A DNA stretch of 33,894 nucleotides, taken from Candidatus Izemoplasma sp. (GTDB taxonomy: Bacteria; Bacillota_I; Bacilli_A; Izemoplasmatales; Izemoplasmataceae). The position numbers and the translations under genes were made by a program. The notes under the pieces are model-generated. The model saw nothing but the letters and a program-made list of their open reading frames with translations. It was not told where the DNA came from and did not search any database. The stretch is from contig JAOZSP010000002.1 of NCBI GenBank assembly GCA_029939615.1, positions 1 through 33,894 of the forward strand. The letters are read 5' to 3'. Below, piece after piece: positions 31 through 15,595 of the stretch (position 1 is its first letter; each line of letters begins with the position of its first letter).

Positions 31-59
31 TTGACAAATTCTTAGATATAGGTTAAACT
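31..59 (+). promoter_or_regulatory. sigma-A/sigma-70 promoter for the protease-lipoprotein operon
   Basis: TTGACA (31-36), 17-bp spacer, TAAACT (54-59); predicted transcription start near 66. Confidence 0.75.
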
Positions 60-65
60 TAAAGT

Positions 66-150
66 AATTAATACGATAACTATATAACAATATAAATACG
101 CAAAGTCTCAGAGCTAAACTATGAAAATATTATGCTGGCTGGATTGTGCA
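66..150 (+). ncRNA. c-di-GMP-I (GEMM)-like riboswitch aptamer, variant or degenerate
   Basis: ACGCAAAG core (98-105). P2 helix AGTCTCAG (104-111) pairs with CTGGATT (139-145). Tetraloop-receptor-like GCTAAA...TATGC (113-118, 131-135). Upstream hairpin TATAT-AACA-ATATA. It lies between a promoter and a leader terminator. The 5' half deviates from consensus. Confidence 0.6.
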
Positions 151-155
151 AACTC

Positions 156-187
156 TGTAGACTTTTATTGGTCTGCATTTTTATTTA
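156..187 (+). terminator. Leader intrinsic terminator (putative riboswitch expression platform)
   Basis: Stem TGTAGAC (156-162) / GTCTGCA (171-177), then TTTTTATTT, all upstream of the RBS AAGGAG. Confidence 0.7.
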
Positions 188-209
188 CATAATTATAAAG
201 GAGTACCCT

Positions 210-926
210 ATGAGAAAACTACTAATAATATTTCTATTACTTTTTACTACCGGTTGTGAACAAATTGATGAAGAAGCTTTAAAAGAAGAAATAAAACAAG
301 AATTAGTAGATGAATTACAGTTTGATATGGATGATATGAATAATCATCTAATAGCTTTATCAAATAACGCTAAAGCTTGTACTGTATCAATTGATGTTAC
401 ATTAACTGAATCTTCTAGTACTCATGGCTCTGGAGTTGTTTATAAGAATGAAGGTAATGATTACTATATATTAACAAATGAACATATTATTAGATACAAT
501 CAAAGTGTTGAAGTGTATTTACCTAGTGAAGATAGATATATAGAAGCGATAGTTACTAAAGAAGATAGTGAAGTTGATTTAGCGATATTAAAAATATCTT
601 CTTTAACAGAAATAGATATTTGTGAAATAGTATTAGCTAGTTATGAAGTTGGTGAATTAGTTATTAGTGTTGGTGCTGCGGTAAGTATTGATTATTCAAA
701 CACAGTGACTTTAGGTGTTATCTCACGGATAGAAGATAACTTAATACAACATGACGCTGCAATAAATCCTGGTAATAGTGGAGGACCACTATTTAATATG
801 AATGGACAATTAATTGGGTTAAATGTCTCTAAAATAAATACTACTACTTTAGGAAGCACAAAAGTATCAGTTGAGGGGATAGGATTTAGTATAACAGTTG
901 AAGAAATTCTTTTATTTATCAATTAA
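210..926 (+). CDS. Trypsin-like (S1C/HtrA-type) serine protease lipoprotein without PDZ domain
   Basis: Triad motifs TNEHII, DLAILKI and INPGNSGGPL. Signal peptide with lipobox FTTGC. Start moved from 132 to ATG 210 because AAGGAG precedes it. Confidence 0.9.
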   Translation: MRKLLIIFLLLFTTGCEQIDEEALKEEIKQELVDELQFDMDDMNNHLIALSNNAKACTVSIDVTLTESSSTHGSGVVYKNEGNDYYILTNEHIIRYNQSVEVYLPSEDRYIEAIVTKEDSEVDLAILKISSLTEIDICEIVLASYEVGELVISVGAAVSIDYSNTVTLGVISRIEDNLIQHDAAINPGNSGGPLFNMNGQLIGLNVSKINTTTLGSTKVSVEGIGFSITVEEILLFIN

Positions 927-967
927 GATAGACTACATATAGATAATAAAAAAAGGAGATGATAGTT

Positions 968-3900
968 TTGAAAAAATTACTAATGTTTGTATTTTTAATT
1001 ACCGCAACTTTAACTTTGACAGGATGTGATTTCGGTAAAGAAGAAATCGATGATTTTATTGATCCCGATAGACAATTAATCTTAGATGATTGTCAAGGAA
1101 TGGGAGATTATATTGTAGTTGATGGAGTATGTATACTAATAGGTGATATAGTATCTCAAAATATCGTAATAGGAGGAGACGAAACAAGAGTTCAGTATCT
1201 TAATGGTGTTGAATTAATGAGTGGGTTTGTAGCTGATTTAGCAGGCTCAAAAGGTTTAGCGGTCGTTTCTAAAGAAGTGTTTGAAAACGATATTAATTTA
1301 GGAGGATCAACTTATTATGATTTAATAAATTTAGCTGCTGACGATGATCCTGAAGAAGACGCTGAGAATATCATTGTAAAACTAACAGAAGAAGGATTTT
1401 TTGAAGAAGTTGGATTTACTAATGAAGCGGGAGTAGATGTTGTAATCACTTCAAATCCTTTAGCTTTAGAAGTGTTTGGAGCATATACAATTGTTGTTTT
1501 TGAAGTGGATTTAGGGTATGAGTATTATACTCCTGATTTCACTCAAAGAGTATTTGATTCACTTCATGCAGGTGGAGTATATTTGATTCATAACGAATCT
1601 GGAAAGATGTTTGCCACTAAAGAAATAGAACAAGTGGAAAACGTATATACTTATACTGAAAATCATTCAAGAAACATTAACATAATGGTTACATTGAATG
1701 TGCCAGTAGTTGAAATTCAATATGTTTTTCAACTTGATGAATTTGGTATGCCAATTTTTGGTGATGATGGTATTGAACTCTATGATGAAGTAGAAGTACC
1801 ACTTTTTGATCAAGATGGTAATCCAATAGTATTTACTGAGGGACCTATTTTAACAGAGTTTCTAGAAGTACCAGTAGTAGAATACTACAAGGTTCAACAA
1901 GTAGATGAAGATGGTAATCTTGTTTTTGATGAAAACCAAGAGCCTGTTTATGATGTTGTTGAGGAACCAGTTTTAGATGAAAATGGTAATCCGAAAATTG
2001 AACTACAAGAAGTGCCAGTTTTAGATGATGACGGAAATGTTCAATATCAACAAGAATTTGAAGTTGAATTATACATTGAAGATATAAAAGCAATAACGAT
2101 TACTGAATATTCAGCAAGCGTTACAGATAATCCGGTATCAAATATTGCACATCGATTTGCGGATAAAATTATAGCTGAATATTACAACTGGAATTATTAT
2201 CGTGTAAATAATTACATGATAACATCATTTGGTTTTGCTGCTAGTGAAGAAAATATTTTCTATACTGAAATGAAAGTAGACGAAGATGATGGTAGTAAGA
2301 GTGAAAACTTTGTAATGAAAATTTCATTTGATAGTACTACTAATGAAATACTACTTGAAGAGTATCTAAATGCTACAAAAGCAGGATTCACAGAATGTGA
2401 AATAATTATTGATCCTATTAGTGATAACATTATTTGTGATTCTTGGGATGGTAATCTTAAAGTGTACTCATCAACATACGGCTTAAAAGTAATTCCTGAT
2501 ACTGAGAACTTTAATCCTGTAACGTTCCCTAACGGAGAACTTTACTTCTATGATTCTATGGAAACTTACGTTGAAGAATTAGGATATTATACAACACTGT
2601 TATATACAATTAATGATGATGGAACACTAGAATCATATTTTATTGAACTTGGTGAAAAAGAAGAAGTTTGCTTTGGTGCTTGTTATAATAGTATAAATGT
2701 TAATTTCTTTAACCAAGCTGGTGAAGCATATGGAAATATTGGATATGTAGATTTACAGTTATCTGATGGTGACAAAATGTTTTTAAATGCTGATCTTCAA
2801 GTTCAAAGTATTGGTGAATTTTCTTCAGAAAGACCTGAATGTACTGATACAAATGGATGTTGGTATAACACTAAAAACGAAGTAATAGATGCTGCAGGAG
2901 AATTTGTTACATCATTTGAATCATCAGTTGTTATTTATCCAGGAGATCCTGTTCCGGGATACTTAGTAACATATCAATTAGATTCTCAAACGGTATATGA
3001 ATATGAACAAATGTATTCAGATGATGACTTGATTTGTGATAATGAAATAGGATGTACTAGCCATATTAATCTTGTTGACTATTCAATAAACTCTGAAGGA
3101 TATTGGATGTATGATAGTATTATTGTTGAAGACGGTGAAAAAGTCATAGAAAGTATTGAATTAGCTGAAACAAATACTGCTGTTTATGAGTATACAAAAG
3201 ATGTAGTTGGTGAAGTATGTGGATTTACTACTTGTGAAGAGTATGTAAACATTCAATTCTATGATTTTGCGGGTGAACTATTAAGTGAAACTAATACTTT
3301 GATTCAAATCGCAGAAGGAGAAACAATACCTCTTAATATCGAATACCATATTACAGGAGATACAACAGTAACAGAAAAAACAAATCTTTGTACAACCTCT
3401 ACAGGATGTTATGAGTATTATGAGACATCTGATAGTATTCACTATTATATTTTCTACGAACAAGGGGATACAATGTATGAAACAATTGATTTTGCAGACA
3501 CAGATAAAACAGTTGTTACAAGTAAAACACTAACTAATGAAATATGTACTGATATTAATGGATGTTATGGAGGAGAATCTGAATATATAATCGTTGATAA
3601 CGAGGGAGTAGAATTATATAATTTCTCTAATTATGCTTTCGCTGAATACGGTTATAGAGTTCCTTTCAAAGTAACAGTTAATATTAATGATGTAACAATA
3701 AGATATCGTAAAGAATCACTAATCGATGATATGATTTGTGAGGAAACAATTTGTCGAAGCCATGTGGAAATTGTAATTGGTACTACTATTAATAATGTTT
3801 CACTTGGTTGGGCAGATATTGCATTCGCACAAGATGAGAAAATCATGATAAGGATTATCTTAGATGACGATACAGTGAAAACAGTAGAATCTGAAATGAT

Positions 3901-4579
3901 TTGTGATATTGCTGAAGGTTGCTATATCTATTCAAGCAACTACATAATTGTAGATTCAGAGGGAACTGAATTCCAAAATGAAGATCCAAATTGGTATAAA
4001 CAACATCTACCAGTATTCTTCGCTAATGGTGATAGTATTCCAGTTGATAATCAATTTGAAGTAACGTTCGAAATAATTGCTGCTGAATATCTAAAAAATA
4101 GAATATTTGTCCATGAGTTCTTATATAACTTAAACAATGTAATTGTTCTTGATGAAAACTTATATTTAATTGAACAACAATCTTGGGCTATAGGAAATGA
4201 TAATTTCATTTTAGAGTTTAACGAAACAACAGGAAGATATTCTGCGAAATATACAAACATATCAGCAATAACAGAAATAACTGCATTCGGAGATGGATTT
4301 ATTGCAATAAACGATGATGAAACTGCTATTATGCATTTCTCATATAATACAGAACTATCAAGTGAGGATTACTATTACTTTGATATCGAAAATTTAACAG
4401 AAGGATTATTAATTAACGGAGTAAATGATCTAATCGTTGACTATGATGGTTCAATCTACTTCAAAGGAGTAGACAACTTTATTCAAGATATTACTGGTTC
4501 AATAAGTGAAGATGGTGTTGTTACTATCGATACTGAATTTGTTGAACGACAAATAATTAGAGTAAGACCAATAAACTAA
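968..4579 (+). CDS. Giant (~1200 aa) acidic surface lipoprotein with DxxG hairpin repeats and Cys-pair repeats; function unknown
   Basis: Lipobox LTGC after a KKLL-hydrophobic signal. Very D/E-rich. TTG start at 968 is 9 nt from AGGAG, whereas ATG 959 abuts the RBS. Confidence 0.85.
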   Translation: MKKLLMFVFLITATLTLTGCDFGKEEIDDFIDPDRQLILDDCQGMGDYIVVDGVCILIGDIVSQNIVIGGDETRVQYLNGVELMSGFVADLAGSKGLAVVSKEVFENDINLGGSTYYDLINLAADDDPEEDAENIIVKLTEEGFFEEVGFTNEAGVDVVITSNPLALEVFGAYTIVVFEVDLGYEYYTPDFTQRVFDSLHAGGVYLIHNESGKMFATKEIEQVENVYTYTENHSRNINIMVTLNVPVVEIQYVFQLDEFGMPIFGDDGIELYDEVEVPLFDQDGNPIVFTEGPILTEFLEVPVVEYYKVQQVDEDGNLVFDENQEPVYDVVEEPVLDENGNPKIELQEVPVLDDDGNVQYQQEFEVELYIEDIKAITITEYSASVTDNPVSNIAHRFADKIIAEYYNWNYYRVNNYMITSFGFAASEENIFYTEMKVDEDDGSKSENFVMKISFDSTTNEILLEEYLNATKAGFTECEIIIDPISDNIICDSWDGNLKVYSSTYGLKVIPDTENFNPVTFPNGELYFYDSMETYVEELGYYTTLLYTINDDGTLESYFIELGEKEEVCFGACYNSINVNFFNQAGEAYGNIGYVDLQLSDGDKMFLNADLQVQSIGEFSSERPECTDTNGCWYNTKNEVIDAAGEFVTSFESSVVIYPGDPVPGYLVTYQLDSQTVYEYEQMYSDDDLICDNEIGCTSHINLVDYSINSEGYWMYDSIIVEDGEKVIESIELAETNTAVYEYTKDVVGEVCGFTTCEEYVNIQFYDFAGELLSETNTLIQIAEGETIPLNIEYHITGDTTVTEKTNLCTTSTGCYEYYETSDSIHYYIFYEQGDTMYETIDFADTDKTVVTSKTLTNEICTDINGCYGGESEYIIVDNEGVELYNFSNYAFAEYGYRVPFKVTVNINDVTIRYRKESLIDDMICEETICRSHVEIVIGTTINNVSLGWADIAFAQDEKIMIRIILDDDTVKTVESEMICDIAEGCYIYSSNYIIVDSEGTEFQNEDPNWYKQHLPVFFANGDSIPVDNQFEVTFEIIAAEYLKNRIFVHEFLYNLNNVIVLDENLYLIEQQSWAIGNDNFILEFNETTGRYSAKYTNISAITEITAFGDGFIAINDDETAIMHFSYNTELSSEDYYYFDIENLTEGLLINGVNDLIVDYDGSIYFKGVDNFIQDITGSISEDGVVTIDTEFVERQIIRVRPIN
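1694..2050 (+). repeat. Acidic D-x-x-G beta-hairpin repeats inside the giant lipoprotein
   Basis: LDEFG, GDDG, FDQDGN, VDEDGN, FDENQ, LDENGN, LDDDGN. LxVPVVE recurs 56 aa apart (1694, 1862). DNA repeat CCAGTTTTAGATGA at 1967 and 2015. Confidence 0.8.
2669..4080 (+). repeat. Eight degenerate 52-65 aa Cys-pair repeats inside the giant lipoprotein
   Basis: CFGAC (2669), CTDTNGC (2840), CDNEIGC (3035), CGFTTC (3218), CTTSTGC (3389), CTDINGC (3545), CEETIC (3737), CDIAEGC (3902). Each is followed by a G(D/E)x-hydrophobic-like turn. Confidence 0.8.
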
Positions 4580-4594
4580 TAACTACAATACATT

Positions 4595-4631
4595 AAAAAA
4601 AAATACTGTTCAATCGAACAGTATTTTTTTT
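4595..4631. terminator. Bidirectional intrinsic terminator
   Basis: A-tract, TACTGTTC-aatc-GAACAGTA, T-tract, between convergent genes. Confidence 0.9.
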
Positions 4632-6552: not shown

Positions 6553-7791
6553 ATGAGTGAATCAAAAAAGACATTTAGCGATTTTTTAAAAATTATCAAC
6601 GATGTGGATGAGTATCCAAACTTATCCAAACTTAGATATAAATATTTCTTTAACCAAAGTGATATAGAAGAGATGCAAAAACTTAAATATCAGAATAAAC
6701 TATACAGTGTTCTTCCTTTGAAATCGGATACTGATAGTAGTTTGCTATATTTATTTACTGAAAGTATTAAAAGAAACCTATTAGGGAGTGTTGATCTAAT
6801 AGTTGATTCAAAAATAGAGGAATTAAATCAAGTGGATAATAAAAACATTATTAACGGGTTCATTTCTTCTGAAATTGAGAATAGCCTATTAATTGAGGGA
6901 GTACATAGTTCAAGAAAAAAAATAGAAAAGGTTAGTAAAAAGGATTACTCAGAGTTAACTAATAATAAAGAAGTAATTATTAAAAACATGCTGGAAGGAT
7001 ATAACTTTATACTGGAAAACAAAATTACTATAGATAACATTTATAAATTATATAATATTTTAAGTCATAATTGTCTTAAATTAGATGAAAAACTAATAGA
7101 AGAAAACATGTATCGACATGCAGGAGTTGATATTATTGGACCTTCAGGCATTGCTGTTGACAGTGGGGTGGATTATAAACAGTTGCCTAGACTAATGGAA
7201 CAATTGGTTGAATATATCAATATTAAGAAAACACGATATGAACATTTAGTTGCACCTCATATAATTCATTACTATTTAATTTATCTACATCCTTACTTTG
7301 ATTATAATGGTAGAATGTCACGTGTGTTGTCTTTTTGGTATACACTGAAGAATGTACCATCTATAAGTCTGCTTTTCACTAGTGAAGCTATAAATAATCC
7401 TAAGAATAAGAAGTATTATTATAAAGCTATAGAATATTCTAGAGAAGCAAACAATGATATTACTTTCTTTATAGAGTATCTAACTAAAATTTCATTTGAG
7501 ACAACAAAAAGTTATATTAATTTTTATAAAATTATAAATTCGATGCTCGGTAATGGAATGATTCTAACCAATGCAGAAATGAACGCTGTTAAAACTGTAC
7601 TGTCTATAGAAAGAATAGGGGCAGGATATTTTAACTGGAAAAAGTATAAACTTTATGAATTTAATGATCTAAAAAAACAATATATACTTAGACTGTTGAA
7701 TAAACTAAGTGAATACAAAATTCTCTTAAGAACGGAGCGAAAAACAGCATATTTATATATAATTAATTATAAGAAATTTGATTTACTATAA
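6553..7791 (+). CDS. Fic-domain protein (class II, N-terminal inhibitory helix) with a possible C-terminal winged helix
   Basis: Active-site motif HPYFDYNGRMSR; inhibitory (S/T)xxxE(G/N) motif SLLIEG. The basic C-terminal segment (KKQYILRLLNKLSEYKILLR..YLYII) resembles a wHTH (inference). Confidence 0.9.
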   Translation: MSESKKTFSDFLKIINDVDEYPNLSKLRYKYFFNQSDIEEMQKLKYQNKLYSVLPLKSDTDSSLLYLFTESIKRNLLGSVDLIVDSKIEELNQVDNKNIINGFISSEIENSLLIEGVHSSRKKIEKVSKKDYSELTNNKEVIIKNMLEGYNFILENKITIDNIYKLYNILSHNCLKLDEKLIEENMYRHAGVDIIGPSGIAVDSGVDYKQLPRLMEQLVEYINIKKTRYEHLVAPHIIHYYLIYLHPYFDYNGRMSRVLSFWYTLKNVPSISLLFTSEAINNPKNKKYYYKAIEYSREANNDITFFIEYLTKISFETTKSYINFYKIINSMLGNGMILTNAEMNAVKTVLSIERIGAGYFNWKKYKLYEFNDLKKQYILRLLNKLSEYKILLRTERKTAYLYIINYKKFDLL

Positions 7792-13582: not shown

Positions 13583-15595
13583 TTAGTGTTCACTAAAAAT
13601 TGATTTTAGTTGTCCTTCTTTTATTAGTTCAATCATGATGTCAGAAATGTCTGGATTAAACTGGGTACCTTTATACATTGTTAGTTCTTTAATTATTTCT
13701 TCAGGATTTTTTTGCATTGAGTACGGTCTTAATGTGGCCATAGAACTTACGCTGTCAGCAACACATAGAATTTGGGATCCAAGAGGTATTTTGGATTTGG
13801 CTAGTCCATCAGGATATCCACTACCATTCCACCACTCATGATGGTGTTTAACTAATAAAGCAATTTCTTTAAGTGAAGAACTTTTACTTAATATTTCGAA
13901 ACCGAAGATTGGATGTTCTTTTACTTTTTTATATTCTGATAATGTTATTTTTGATGGTTTATTTATTATTTCGCTTGGAACTCCAATTTTACCAATATCA
14001 TGAACAATACCTGCCCAATATATTCTTGATACTTCATCTTCTGGTAATTTCATTCTTTGTGCGATTATTTGAGATATTTCAGCAACGTCTTCACTGTGCC
14101 CTCCTGTATATTTATCATATAGTTCTAGTGTTCTAATTAAACTGAGCACAATTTCATCTTTTAAATCATTGTTTCTTAATGATAACTTATTCATATCAAA
14201 GAATGAGTTGATTAGTTTTTGAAATGCAGCTATATTATTAAAATCTTCTTGGGATATTGTGTTTGGACTTCCTTCTTTTATATCAAAAGAAATTACTCCG
14301 TACTCTGAATCAAAGACTTCTATAACAATTATTATTGATTCCTTTAATTTAGGAATTGAATTAGAGAATAAAGGAAATCTCTCTTTAAGAATTTTTTCAA
14401 ACTCCATAGCAAAATCATGTGTGTGTCTTGGGGTTATCCTTTCCCAATTAATGGAATTCGATTTAATGTCTAAATTATTTAAGAAGTCTAAGTCGTAGCC
14501 TTTAGCAGATAGAAACTCAATATTATTATCAGTATTTGTAAAACAGAAAGAACCGTCTATCTTATCAAATAACTTCATTGCTATTTTGTGAATATCTATT
14601 AGATAACTATTTTTATATGTAATATCTTCAGTATCAAGAGTATCTTTAACTTTTATCAAACTTAGAGTTGATTCCATCATTTCTTCTAGGCGTTCATTAG
14701 TTTTAATTAGGGACTTATTTTGTTCAATTACTTTTATAACTAGTGTTTTTCCGAAAATAGAGATGATAATTGCACTCATCAAAAATAGATTAAAGCCAAC
14801 GATTGAGTGGTTATCGACTGCCATGTCATTAATTTGAAAGTACACAATATTGTAGGTTAGGATATATGCATAGCTTAAATATATCATCATTCTGTAATTG
14901 TAGTTAAAAATAGTAGTCATGAAGAAGATAAGAATAATACTTGCATAAATAGTAAACTTAAAATTTGGGAATAGATGCATAAAGTATATATAACTTACTA
15001 TAATAAACAAAATTATAAAGATAGAAAAGGAAAGTAATTTTTTTAATGTAATAGAAAAATAATCATCCTTTTTCCCAGAATATATTACTGTCGTTGTAAA
15101 TATCGAAATACTTACTAAAGCCATTATAAGAATTTGACTAAAGATATTGATGAACGAGGTGTCAGTTTGAAAACTGAAATAGATACTGGAGGGAACAGAT
15201 ACAACTAATGAAGTGATGAATACGGATAGAAGATATAGAAAACCTGTTTTTATTGATTCTGGCGTTTCACACTTAAACCTTGTTGTTAAGGCGTCAAAGG
15301 CAAGCATAGGGACTAATGACATTGCGCAAATTGCCATGCCGAATATGAAAGAATCAAAAAATGAATTATTTATGAGAATACGGATAAAAAATCCAGATGA
15401 AAATAGTCCAGTAATAATACCTGGCAGTGCTTTTTTCCCAAAAGTTTTGTAAAAACCAATGGCTAAACCTAAGAAAATCATTATGGGATAATGATTGTCA
15501 AGCTTTTCTATAAAAAGTTCTTCGAGAATAACTGTAACAGCAAGAATGATGCCGATAGCAATATTCTTGTTAATATTTGACGCTTTTCGTAACAT
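13583..15595 (-). CDS. Membrane-bound HD-GYP cyclic-dinucleotide phosphodiesterase (multi-TM sensor, GAF-like linker, HD-GYP)
   Basis: DKYTGGHSEDV, VHDIGKIG, HHHEWWNGSGYPDGL, VADS and RPY; hydrophobic N-terminal ~290 aa; RBS AGGGGTG. Confidence 0.9.
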   Translation of the reverse strand: MLRKASNINKNIAIGIILAVTVILEELFIEKLDNHYPIMIFLGLAIGFYKTFGKKALPGIITGLFSSGFFIRILINNSFFDSFIFGMAICAMSLVPMLAFDALTTRFKCETPESIKTGFLYLLSVFITSLVVSVPSSIYFSFQTDTSFINIFSQILIMALVSISIFTTTVIYSGKKDDYFSITLKKLLSFSIFIILFIIVSYIYFMHLFPNFKFTIYASIILIFFMTTIFNYNYRMMIYLSYAYILTYNIVYFQINDMAVDNHSIVGFNLFLMSAIIISIFGKTLVIKVIEQNKSLIKTNERLEEMMESTLSLIKVKDTLDTEDITYKNSYLIDIHKIAMKLFDKIDGSFCFTNTDNNIEFLSAKGYDLDFLNNLDIKSNSINWERITPRHTHDFAMEFEKILKERFPLFSNSIPKLKESIIIVIEVFDSEYGVISFDIKEGSPNTISQEDFNNIAAFQKLINSFFDMNKLSLRNNDLKDEIVLSLIRTLELYDKYTGGHSEDVAEISQIIAQRMKLPEDEVSRIYWAGIVHDIGKIGVPSEIINKPSKITLSEYKKVKEHPIFGFEILSKSSSLKEIALLVKHHHEWWNGSGYPDGLAKSKIPLGSQILCVADSVSSMATLRPYSMQKNPEEIIKELTMYKGTQFNPDISDIMIELIKEGQLKSIFSEH

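Follow-up and report, generated by a model that had tools for sequence, protein, structure and literature searches.

In Pseudomonas, the LapA/LapG/LapD system links a giant repetitive surface protein and a dedicated protease to the second messenger cyclic di-guanosine monophosphate (c-di-GMP). Control is post-translational there: the cysteine protease LapG is bound by a receptor, LapD, and LapA belongs to the RTX proteins exported by type I secretion. In Clostridioides difficile, the secreted zinc metalloprotease PPEP-1 (ZmpI, CD2830), a Pro-Pro endopeptidase, is paired with the sortase-anchored adhesins CD2831/CD3246; according to passages of one report, the PPEP-1 gene lies under a class I OFF riboswitch, and the adhesins that it cuts lie under class II ON riboswitches (PMC6366702). 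Here, we describe a two-gene unit at the start of a 33,894-nucleotide stretch of Candidatus Izemoplasma sp. DNA (assembly GCA_029939615.1, contig JAOZSP010000002.1, forward strand; hereafter, the window), in which a class I c-di-GMP leader precedes the genes of a small HtrA-type lipoprotein protease and of a large acidic lipoprotein (Table 1). An initial annotation, made from the sequence alone, had delineated a promoter-like site, a riboswitch, two lipoprotein genes and a strong terminator, all of which we recovered in their places. In the reading that we prefer, to which we assign a probability of roughly 0.45, the large protein is a lipid-anchored propeller hub with two arms, serving as a coat or spacer at low c-di-GMP, and the protease is an accessory enzyme of maturation or quality control.

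The unit resembles that of C. difficile in that a c-di-GMP riboswitch, a secreted protease and a surface protein occur together. It differs in the anchor, which is a lipobox, in the RPIN C-terminus of the large protein and in the protease, which is a trypsin-fold serine lipoprotein. Control also differs, since one class I leader lies over both genes at five loci and the protease gene is outside the switch at three. The LapA/LapG or CD2831/PPEP-1 logic invoked by the initial annotation needs opposite control (PMC6366702, in the passages cited); one OFF-layout switch over both genes contradicts it. Searches of Pfam and NCBIfam gave no RTX/type I adhesin, cysteine protease or LapD-kind match in either protein. 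The classes of the parts are known ones; neither the protein family nor its predicted plan of a split propeller nor the riboswitch network of this lineage was found in the literature searched, which left subscription papers and bioRxiv supplements outside. Surface building and lifestyle change in wall-less, free-living bacteria are little studied. The locus offers a defined new protein family built on an unusual plan, a dedicated protease for which an inactive form is a clean control, and leaders whose direction standard reporters can measure. Beyond the unit itself, it points to a larger set of c-di-GMP riboswitches in this lineage, a natural in-place decay of an aptamer and a candidate new leader RNA.

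The host genome (1.63 Mb, 30% GC, 90.9% complete) holds 18 GGDEF and 10 HD-GYP-like motifs, and c-di-GMP signalling is therefore present in the host. Neither a transpeptidase nor a Mur ligase was found in this 90.9% complete genome by a search that detected 10 of 14 controls; the host is probably without a cell wall, as the initial annotation had surmised for the lineage, and part of a preprint describes a cultured relative as wall-less and non-motile (bioRxiv 10.1101/2020.11.18.388454). The stretch is covered, with few differences, by contigs from four runs of two studies (vent and marine sediment metagenomes), of which the best-matching run may be where the window comes from. For comparison, we surveyed 158 genomes of the host's order and 301 of a second order (that of genome G158), and we fetched and compared 25 loci with the large gene (loci are labelled Lxxx and genomes Gxxx).

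The riboswitch of the unit

The class I c-di-GMP aptamer model (RF01051, cut-off 35 bits) matched 10 distinct units, with scores of 56-86 bits for the relatives of the window copy. The aptamer is located 5′ of the protease gene in the window, L036, L037, L039 and L041, between the protease gene and the large gene in L044, L048 and L055, and 5′ of the large gene at two loci with no protease gene, L045 and L057. It was not found in L038, L040, L047, L049, L060, L067, L068 and L076. The riboswitch is upstream of the large gene at 10/10 loci and upstream of the protease gene at five of the eight protease-bearing ones; it tracks the large gene, and the "switched protease" of the initial annotation was not supported. 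A conserved, co-inherited unit under a cyclic-dinucleotide-class leader did recur across the loci compared. An ortholog of the protease was present in 9 of the 21 large-gene genomes.

Aptamer and terminator do not overlap in any of the 10 units. Pairing of the aptamer with the terminator 5′ arm exceeds that of shuffled sequences in six of them, and pairing with the 3′ arm in none; in the window, the antiterminator, formed by the aptamer P3 strand and the terminator 5′ arm, reaches -15.0 kcal/mol (p 0.003, 300 shuffles). A separate terminator whose 5′ arm pairs with the aptamer constitutes an OFF layout, and it is likely, judging from these pairings, that high c-di-GMP turns the genes off through the riboswitch. 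In the unbound riboswitch, the aptamer strand would capture the terminator 5′ arm and transcription would continue; on binding of c-di-GMP, the terminator would form and the genes would be off. Several observations weigh against this direction. Antiterminator pairing did not reach p 0.05 in 4 of the 10 units (p 0.10-0.56), half of the six leaders that did reach it are closely related, and the mreB leader of the host genome, described below, gave p 0.385. In the passages cited, both ON and OFF forms of class I switches are known, so that each needs its own test; the functional ones of C. difficile are all OFF, and direction is not transferable across species (PMC6366702). Equilibrium folding of the whole leaders did not discriminate; the terminator dominates in most of them, including that of the window (0.97).

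The window aptamer is a degenerate copy and the lowest scoring of four in the host genome (the others, 51.8-66.5 bits). With Vc2 numbering mapped through the Rfam alignment, it keeps G20 (position 75), C46 and A47; its P3 arm is intact and almost identical to that of the intact same-genus copies in L102 and L106, whereas its pocket and tetraloop are substituted. Relative to L039, G21 is changed to A (76), C22 to U (77) and the GAAA loop to ACAA (87-90), and a P2 pair is broken; relative to L102 and L106, the window has a U, or a 2-nucleotide insertion, at C92 (C92 to U, 147). The GNRA tetraloop on P2 is thus lost, and the ACAA is the same in an independent run. Bases 81-188 are identical in a run from another study, and bases 65-80 rest on one run. 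Pocket bases are intact in L036, L037, L039 and L041. G21, C46, A47 and C92 are named as critical in the class I aptamer in passages of two reports (PMC9049102, PMC7288161). The substitutions suggest that the window aptamer probably no longer binds its ligand, so that expression here would no longer follow c-di-GMP; given the strong antiterminator pairing, the unit may be constitutive in the window, whether on or off. L102 and L106 come from genomes without the large gene; behind their riboswitches lies an uncharacterised acidic repeat lipoprotein of >470 amino acids (aa), cut by the locus edge (L102:1670-3085, L106:1682-3082).

Variants with A20 are common in the host's order; examples are L044:5847-5933, L045:5827-5910 and L055:5832-5919, and family f2 has many more. 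Passages of the literature suggest cyclic GMP-AMP (cGAMP) sensing for A20 variants (PMC6456294) and describe a G20A aptamer as bispecific (PMC6140456). The c-di-GMP-I-UAU variant was rejected for the window aptamer, which gave no match to it. For the host genome, cGAMP was rejected as the ligand because the window has G20 and no Hypr-type GGDEF with Ser was found; at the position that we take to be deciding, Asp is present in 18/18 GGDEFs of the host genome and in all those parsed for G162 (12 of its 18).

The promoter candidate is retained for its position just 5′ of the aptamer, since promoter-like sites in the scan (35 observed versus 43.8 in shuffles) are not above chance. An alternative start of the protease reading frame at 132 was rejected because it falls inside the aptamer and the relatives begin at the equivalent of 210. 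The gap between the two genes is of 32 nucleotides and unstructured, and they are presumably co-transcribed. The hairpin after the large gene is flanked by runs of A and U and probably ends transcription in both directions, for this unit and for the convergent mscL gene.

The large lipoprotein

The large protein is acidic (D+E 19.2% versus K+R 4.2%). It is matched at 37-60% identity by 41 proteins of 683-1283 aa, one of which is the window's own, and the named members are all annotated "hypothetical". It has no Pfam, NCBIfam or PDB sequence match; among the 41 members, no Pfam family occurs in more than four at E 0.1, and none is of the YVTN/PKD kind. On these comparisons, it founds an undescribed family. 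The uncharacterised surface lipoprotein of ~1200 aa seen by the initial annotation is upheld. Its description as an acidic repeat protein that was not recognised stands as to acidity and novelty, but the protein is not a plain repeat: a BLAST self-comparison gave no repeats, and degenerate units were detected by profiles only.

The gene is carried by 17 of the 158 genomes of the host's order (one short fragment, one broken) and by 4 of the 301 genomes of the second order, labelled Acholeplasmataceae, Mariniplasma or Bacillota. In L070/L076 (G125), it is broken by several stops; L044 is a carrier with a complete chromosome record. A profile of residues 62-250, compared with 1.84 billion representatives, gave 24 matches: 19 were family members or fragments, one was a repetitive protein, and four were lipoproteins of 477-589 aa (E 6e-6 to 8e-4). 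The short lipoproteins align to residues 86-182 (hhalign 98.8%, E 1e-16, 93 columns), are without the inserts described below and end in a similar PIN/PLN/PLK motif. A search seeded with the four gained one further protein, and arm 2 alone as a query found no shorter relatives. Five lipoproteins of this size (P0052, P0053, P0054, P0057 and P0058), without library matches, resemble an insert-free large protein.

AlphaFold models of the mature protein (predicted local distance difference test, pLDDT, 74.5; predicted template modelling score, pTM, 0.46) and of a natural short form of 837 aa (pLDDT 74.6, pTM 0.57) are almost all beta. Structure searches with both models returned mostly propeller proteins, aligning separated parts of the chain, such as residues 390-1182 or, for 6nau, residues 93-836 (Z 6.8, root-mean-square deviation, rmsd, 6.0, 156 aligned). 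Together, the models and matches suggest a single beta-propeller of eight blades in three stretches, split by two beta-rich inserts, which we call arms. The blades are the most conserved (mean identity 0.56-0.64), followed by the first insert (0.51) and the second (0.40); this pattern would place the conserved part near the lipid anchor with the variable parts projecting, the reverse of a stalk with a conserved tip. Arm 2 has two to eight Cys-pair units among homologues, and two or three in the short ones. Its units cross-match in a profile comparison made without a shuffled control (unit 2 with unit 6, median 29 bits), many other pairs being weak. Short homologues retain the outer units without the middle ones (profile positions 617-929, 687-941 and 682-925), which fits an arm that runs out and back.

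On the other side, the fold matches are weak: the best Z scores were 7.8 and 6.8 for the two models, and the search tool warns that Z <8 may reflect merely a common arrangement. The pTM values of both models weigh on the same side, and the blade count is a reading of strand lists, not of coordinates. The top matches are tied among unrelated propellers, including an archaeal YVTN/PKD surface-layer protein (1l0q; Z 6.8, rmsd 3.5, 118 aligned) and Bacteroides BT1954 (8bn0; Z 7.6, rmsd 4.1, 127 aligned). The large protein has no sequence relation to proteins of this type, and whereas their propeller precedes Ig-like domains, that of the large protein is predicted to be broken up by its two long inserts. 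Foldseek searches against PDB and viral models gave long matches with template modelling (TM) scores of 0.04-0.12, to DDB1-like multi-propeller proteins, from which we take no more than a "propeller-like" character. The fold searches, which barely covered the arms, did not bring any known enzymatic fold to the fore, and no new fold is claimed on their basis.

The protease and the function of the pair

The protease matches Trypsin_2 (E 7.7e-22), has its best PDB sequence matches in DegP/DegQ/DegS domains (E ~1e-28) and falls below every NCBIfam cut-off (best 119.7 versus 416.2). It has the protease domain and the GNSGG/GSSGG serine motif in common with HtrA/DegP/DegS (MEROPS S1C), and differs from them in its lack of a PDZ domain, its length of 230-242 aa among orthologs and its clade. 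The triad is invariant in 15/15 orthologs at 47-72% identity, and all 15 stop right after the protease domain, in keeping with the intact, PDZ-less HtrA-type lipoprotein of the initial annotation. In quick trees, the orthologs form one clade (support 100, long stem) apart from 12 other HtrAs, including those of PDZ length in the host. Groups within the clade mirror the tree of the large protein; since kin share genes, this mirroring shows co-inheritance, not binding.

Among the 25 loci, the protease gene is directly upstream of the large gene at 17 (14 distinct, after removal of three duplicates), six are without it and two are without upstream DNA. At a threshold of E below 1e-80, orthologs occur in 6 of the 158 genomes and 3 of the 301, in all nine directly upstream of the large gene; none was found away from it in the 459 genomes searched, and five weaker matches are longer HtrAs or an outgroup. 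The 12 large-gene genomes that gave no ortholog include several fragments and six with full upstream context. The protease thus occurs only with the large gene, which often does without it, and is accessory; the dependence is one-way.

These losses bear on the possibility that the two genes have no functional link and that the protease is a passenger travelling with the large gene on a transferred segment. Loss or breakage is repeated: L043 lies inside a protease-bearing clade, L047/L067 is another case, and in L036 (464-1180; G137) the protease is stopped at codon 26 beside an intact large gene. In addition, Acholeplasmataceae sequences fall within those of Izemoplasma in a quick tree, as transfer would produce. 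We nevertheless hold a mere passenger to be very improbable, because the protease is never elsewhere in the genomes searched, its triad is invariant at such divergence, and flanking genes differ among the 25 loci while the pair persists.

Alternatively, the large protein could be an adhesin that binds surfaces, and the protease could cut it near the lipid anchor, releasing the cells. Both are lipoproteins of one co-inherited unit, a long variable linker follows the lipid-bearing Cys, and propellers and repeat rods are common in adhesins. Furthermore, class I switches can be ON, as with Bc2 before a collagen adhesin (PMC6366702, in part). The OFF layout and the single switch upstream of both genes at five loci, which gives no opposite control, argue against shedding. 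The protease is missing in L043, L045, L047, L049, L057 and L060 and truncated in L036, the linker (residues 24-85) is poorly conserved (0.38) except for a Cys pair and has no evident conserved cut site, and the conserved part of the protein would be membrane-near. Shedding of an adhesin is therefore unlikely in our view, and a surface structure of free-living cells is the likelier function when set against a biofilm adhesin with a release enzyme.

As a hub with two arms, the large protein would be made at low c-di-GMP, that is, in the free-living state, and would likely coat the wall-less cell or keep its surface at a distance, in a structural role; the small HtrA-type lipoprotein would be its dedicated but dispensable maturation or quality-control protease. 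A gene of such patchy distribution, on the other hand, is not a general envelope component.

Related riboswitches and an alternative leader

RF01051 is above its cut-off in 131 of 151 genomes of the host's order. We examined 48 leaders, of 10 large-gene units, 4 mreB clusters, 19 small secreted proteins of AYW/AWF type (grouped by eye) and 15 others, which are mixed. The terminator is separate from the aptamer in 4/4 mreB leaders, as in the large-gene units. In 13 of the 19 AYW/AWF-type leaders, the terminator uses the 3′ strand of the aptamer, an ON layout; in five no terminator was found, and one has a separate terminator. Such proteins lie behind class I riboswitches in L002 (C180 of the host genome), L003 (C175), L101-L120 and L133-L146. 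In L002 and L003, the 5′ bases of the aptamer are variant, and the UAU variant model gives both copies 48-51 bits, which is under the cut-off of that model. The host genome also has SipW-type peptidases, one a fragment downstream of a small secreted gene pair, and together with the small proteins these peptidases may form a fibre system like that of TasA in bacteria without a wall. The SipW-type label of the small proteins comes from sub-cut-off matches to the SipW signal model in 3 of 12 and from the grouping by eye.

Another possible role for the pair is capture and cutting: proteins from outside, either food or the ON-regulated SipW-type matrix proteins of the cell itself, would be caught by the propeller and its arms and then cleaved by the protease, which would help the cell to forage or disperse when c-di-GMP is low. 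PPEP-1 works on this principle, as a protease under OFF control whose targets are surface proteins under ON control (PMC6366702, in the passages cited); ON-layout secreted genes and SipW-type peptidases occur in the host genome, and propeller-gated peptidases of the S9 family are among the tied fold matches. The S9 matches are no better than unrelated propellers, though, the protease gene is upstream of the switch in L044, L048 and L055 and escapes its control, and the large gene persists without it, so that we regard capture and cutting as decidedly unlikely.

Behind an intact class I riboswitch (66.5 bits), the host genome has a three-gene mreB-like cluster (L001, C117:1256-4587, minus strand), and the arrangement recurs in G005, G006 and G126 (L094, L099, L105). 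Control of Mollicute-type MreBs by c-di-GMP was not found in the literature searched. The large protein could be a surface anchor or leg working with this cluster in motility at low c-di-GMP, given the same riboswitch class and layout in four genomes; moreover, according to part of a preprint, syn3B cells become motile with MreB pairs of Haloplasma, and three MreBs are present in Izimaplasma (bioRxiv 10.64898/2026.06.16.731841). No mreB gene was seen beside the large gene in the 25 loci (read by eye), few genomes of the order carry the large gene, no part of a lipoprotein extends into the cytoplasm where it could contact MreB, and the cultured relative is described as non-motile, all of which makes a role in motility highly improbable.

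At six loci of one Acholeplasmataceae clade, the place of the riboswitch is taken by an alternative leader with a conserved structure ending in a terminator-like hairpin. In its alignment, 98.8% of cells are paired and three pairs are changed on both sides, a value reached by 3 of 500 shuffles; the rows are related, and the structure was derived from the same six rows. The leader has no Rfam match, was found at this operon only (2 of 151 genomes; three of five in another set) and persists with the large gene where the protease is lost (L043). It is not a detectable remnant of the class I aptamer, with no nhmmer score in 6/6. With its covarying helices, among them one of AGCUAU and AUAGCU, it is a candidate new riboswitch or attenuator.

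All these elements could be parts of one lifestyle switch of wall-less Izemoplasmatales. High c-di-GMP would turn SipW-type fibres on, and would turn off the mreB cluster and a propeller appendage with arms tuned in length by Cys units and matured by the PDZ-less HtrA; an undescribed riboswitch class would serve in the Acholeplasmataceae clade. We offer this scheme as a speculation that is decidedly unlikely to hold as a whole.

Table 1. Positions of the unit, the predicted parts of the large protein and the alternative leader (window coordinates unless a locus is given)
Feature	Position	Strand	Details
Sigma-70-type promoter candidate	31..59	+	TTGACA, 17 nt, TAAACT
Class I c-di-GMP (GEMM-I) aptamer, degenerate copy	65..151	+	RF01051, 40.9 bits
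Leader terminator	156..177	+	-10.2 kcal/mol, z -4.9
PDZ-less HtrA/trypsin-type lipoprotein protease, 238 aa	210..926	+	Cys16 lipobox; H92, D123, S190
Acidic lipoprotein, undescribed family, 1206 aa	959..4579	+	Cys23 lipobox; C-terminus I.R.RPIN conserved
Predicted blades 1-2, residues 86-222	1214..1624	+	Mean identity 0.57; shared with 477-589 aa lipoproteins
Arm 1, residues 223-392	1625..2134	+	Predicted long beta-hairpin ribbon, DxxGN turns; identity 0.51
Predicted blades 3-5, residues 393-563	2135..2647	+	Identity 0.56
Arm 2, residues 564-1047	2648..4099	+	Eight degenerate units of ~55-60 aa, each with a Cys pair; identity 0.40
Predicted blades 6-8 and closing strand, residues 1048-1206	4100..4576	+	Best-conserved part, identity 0.64
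Strong hairpin	4596..4631	unstranded	-17.0 kcal/mol, z -9.4; flanked by A and U runs
Alternative leader	L042:5022-5185, L043:2930-3086, L046:5005-5162, L052:200-365, L053:5023-5185, L054:16-179

Elsewhere in the window, a Fic-domain gene lies in a low-GC stretch (6553-7791) and a membrane-anchored HD-GYP-like protein is encoded at 13583-15595; no link of either to the unit was seen.

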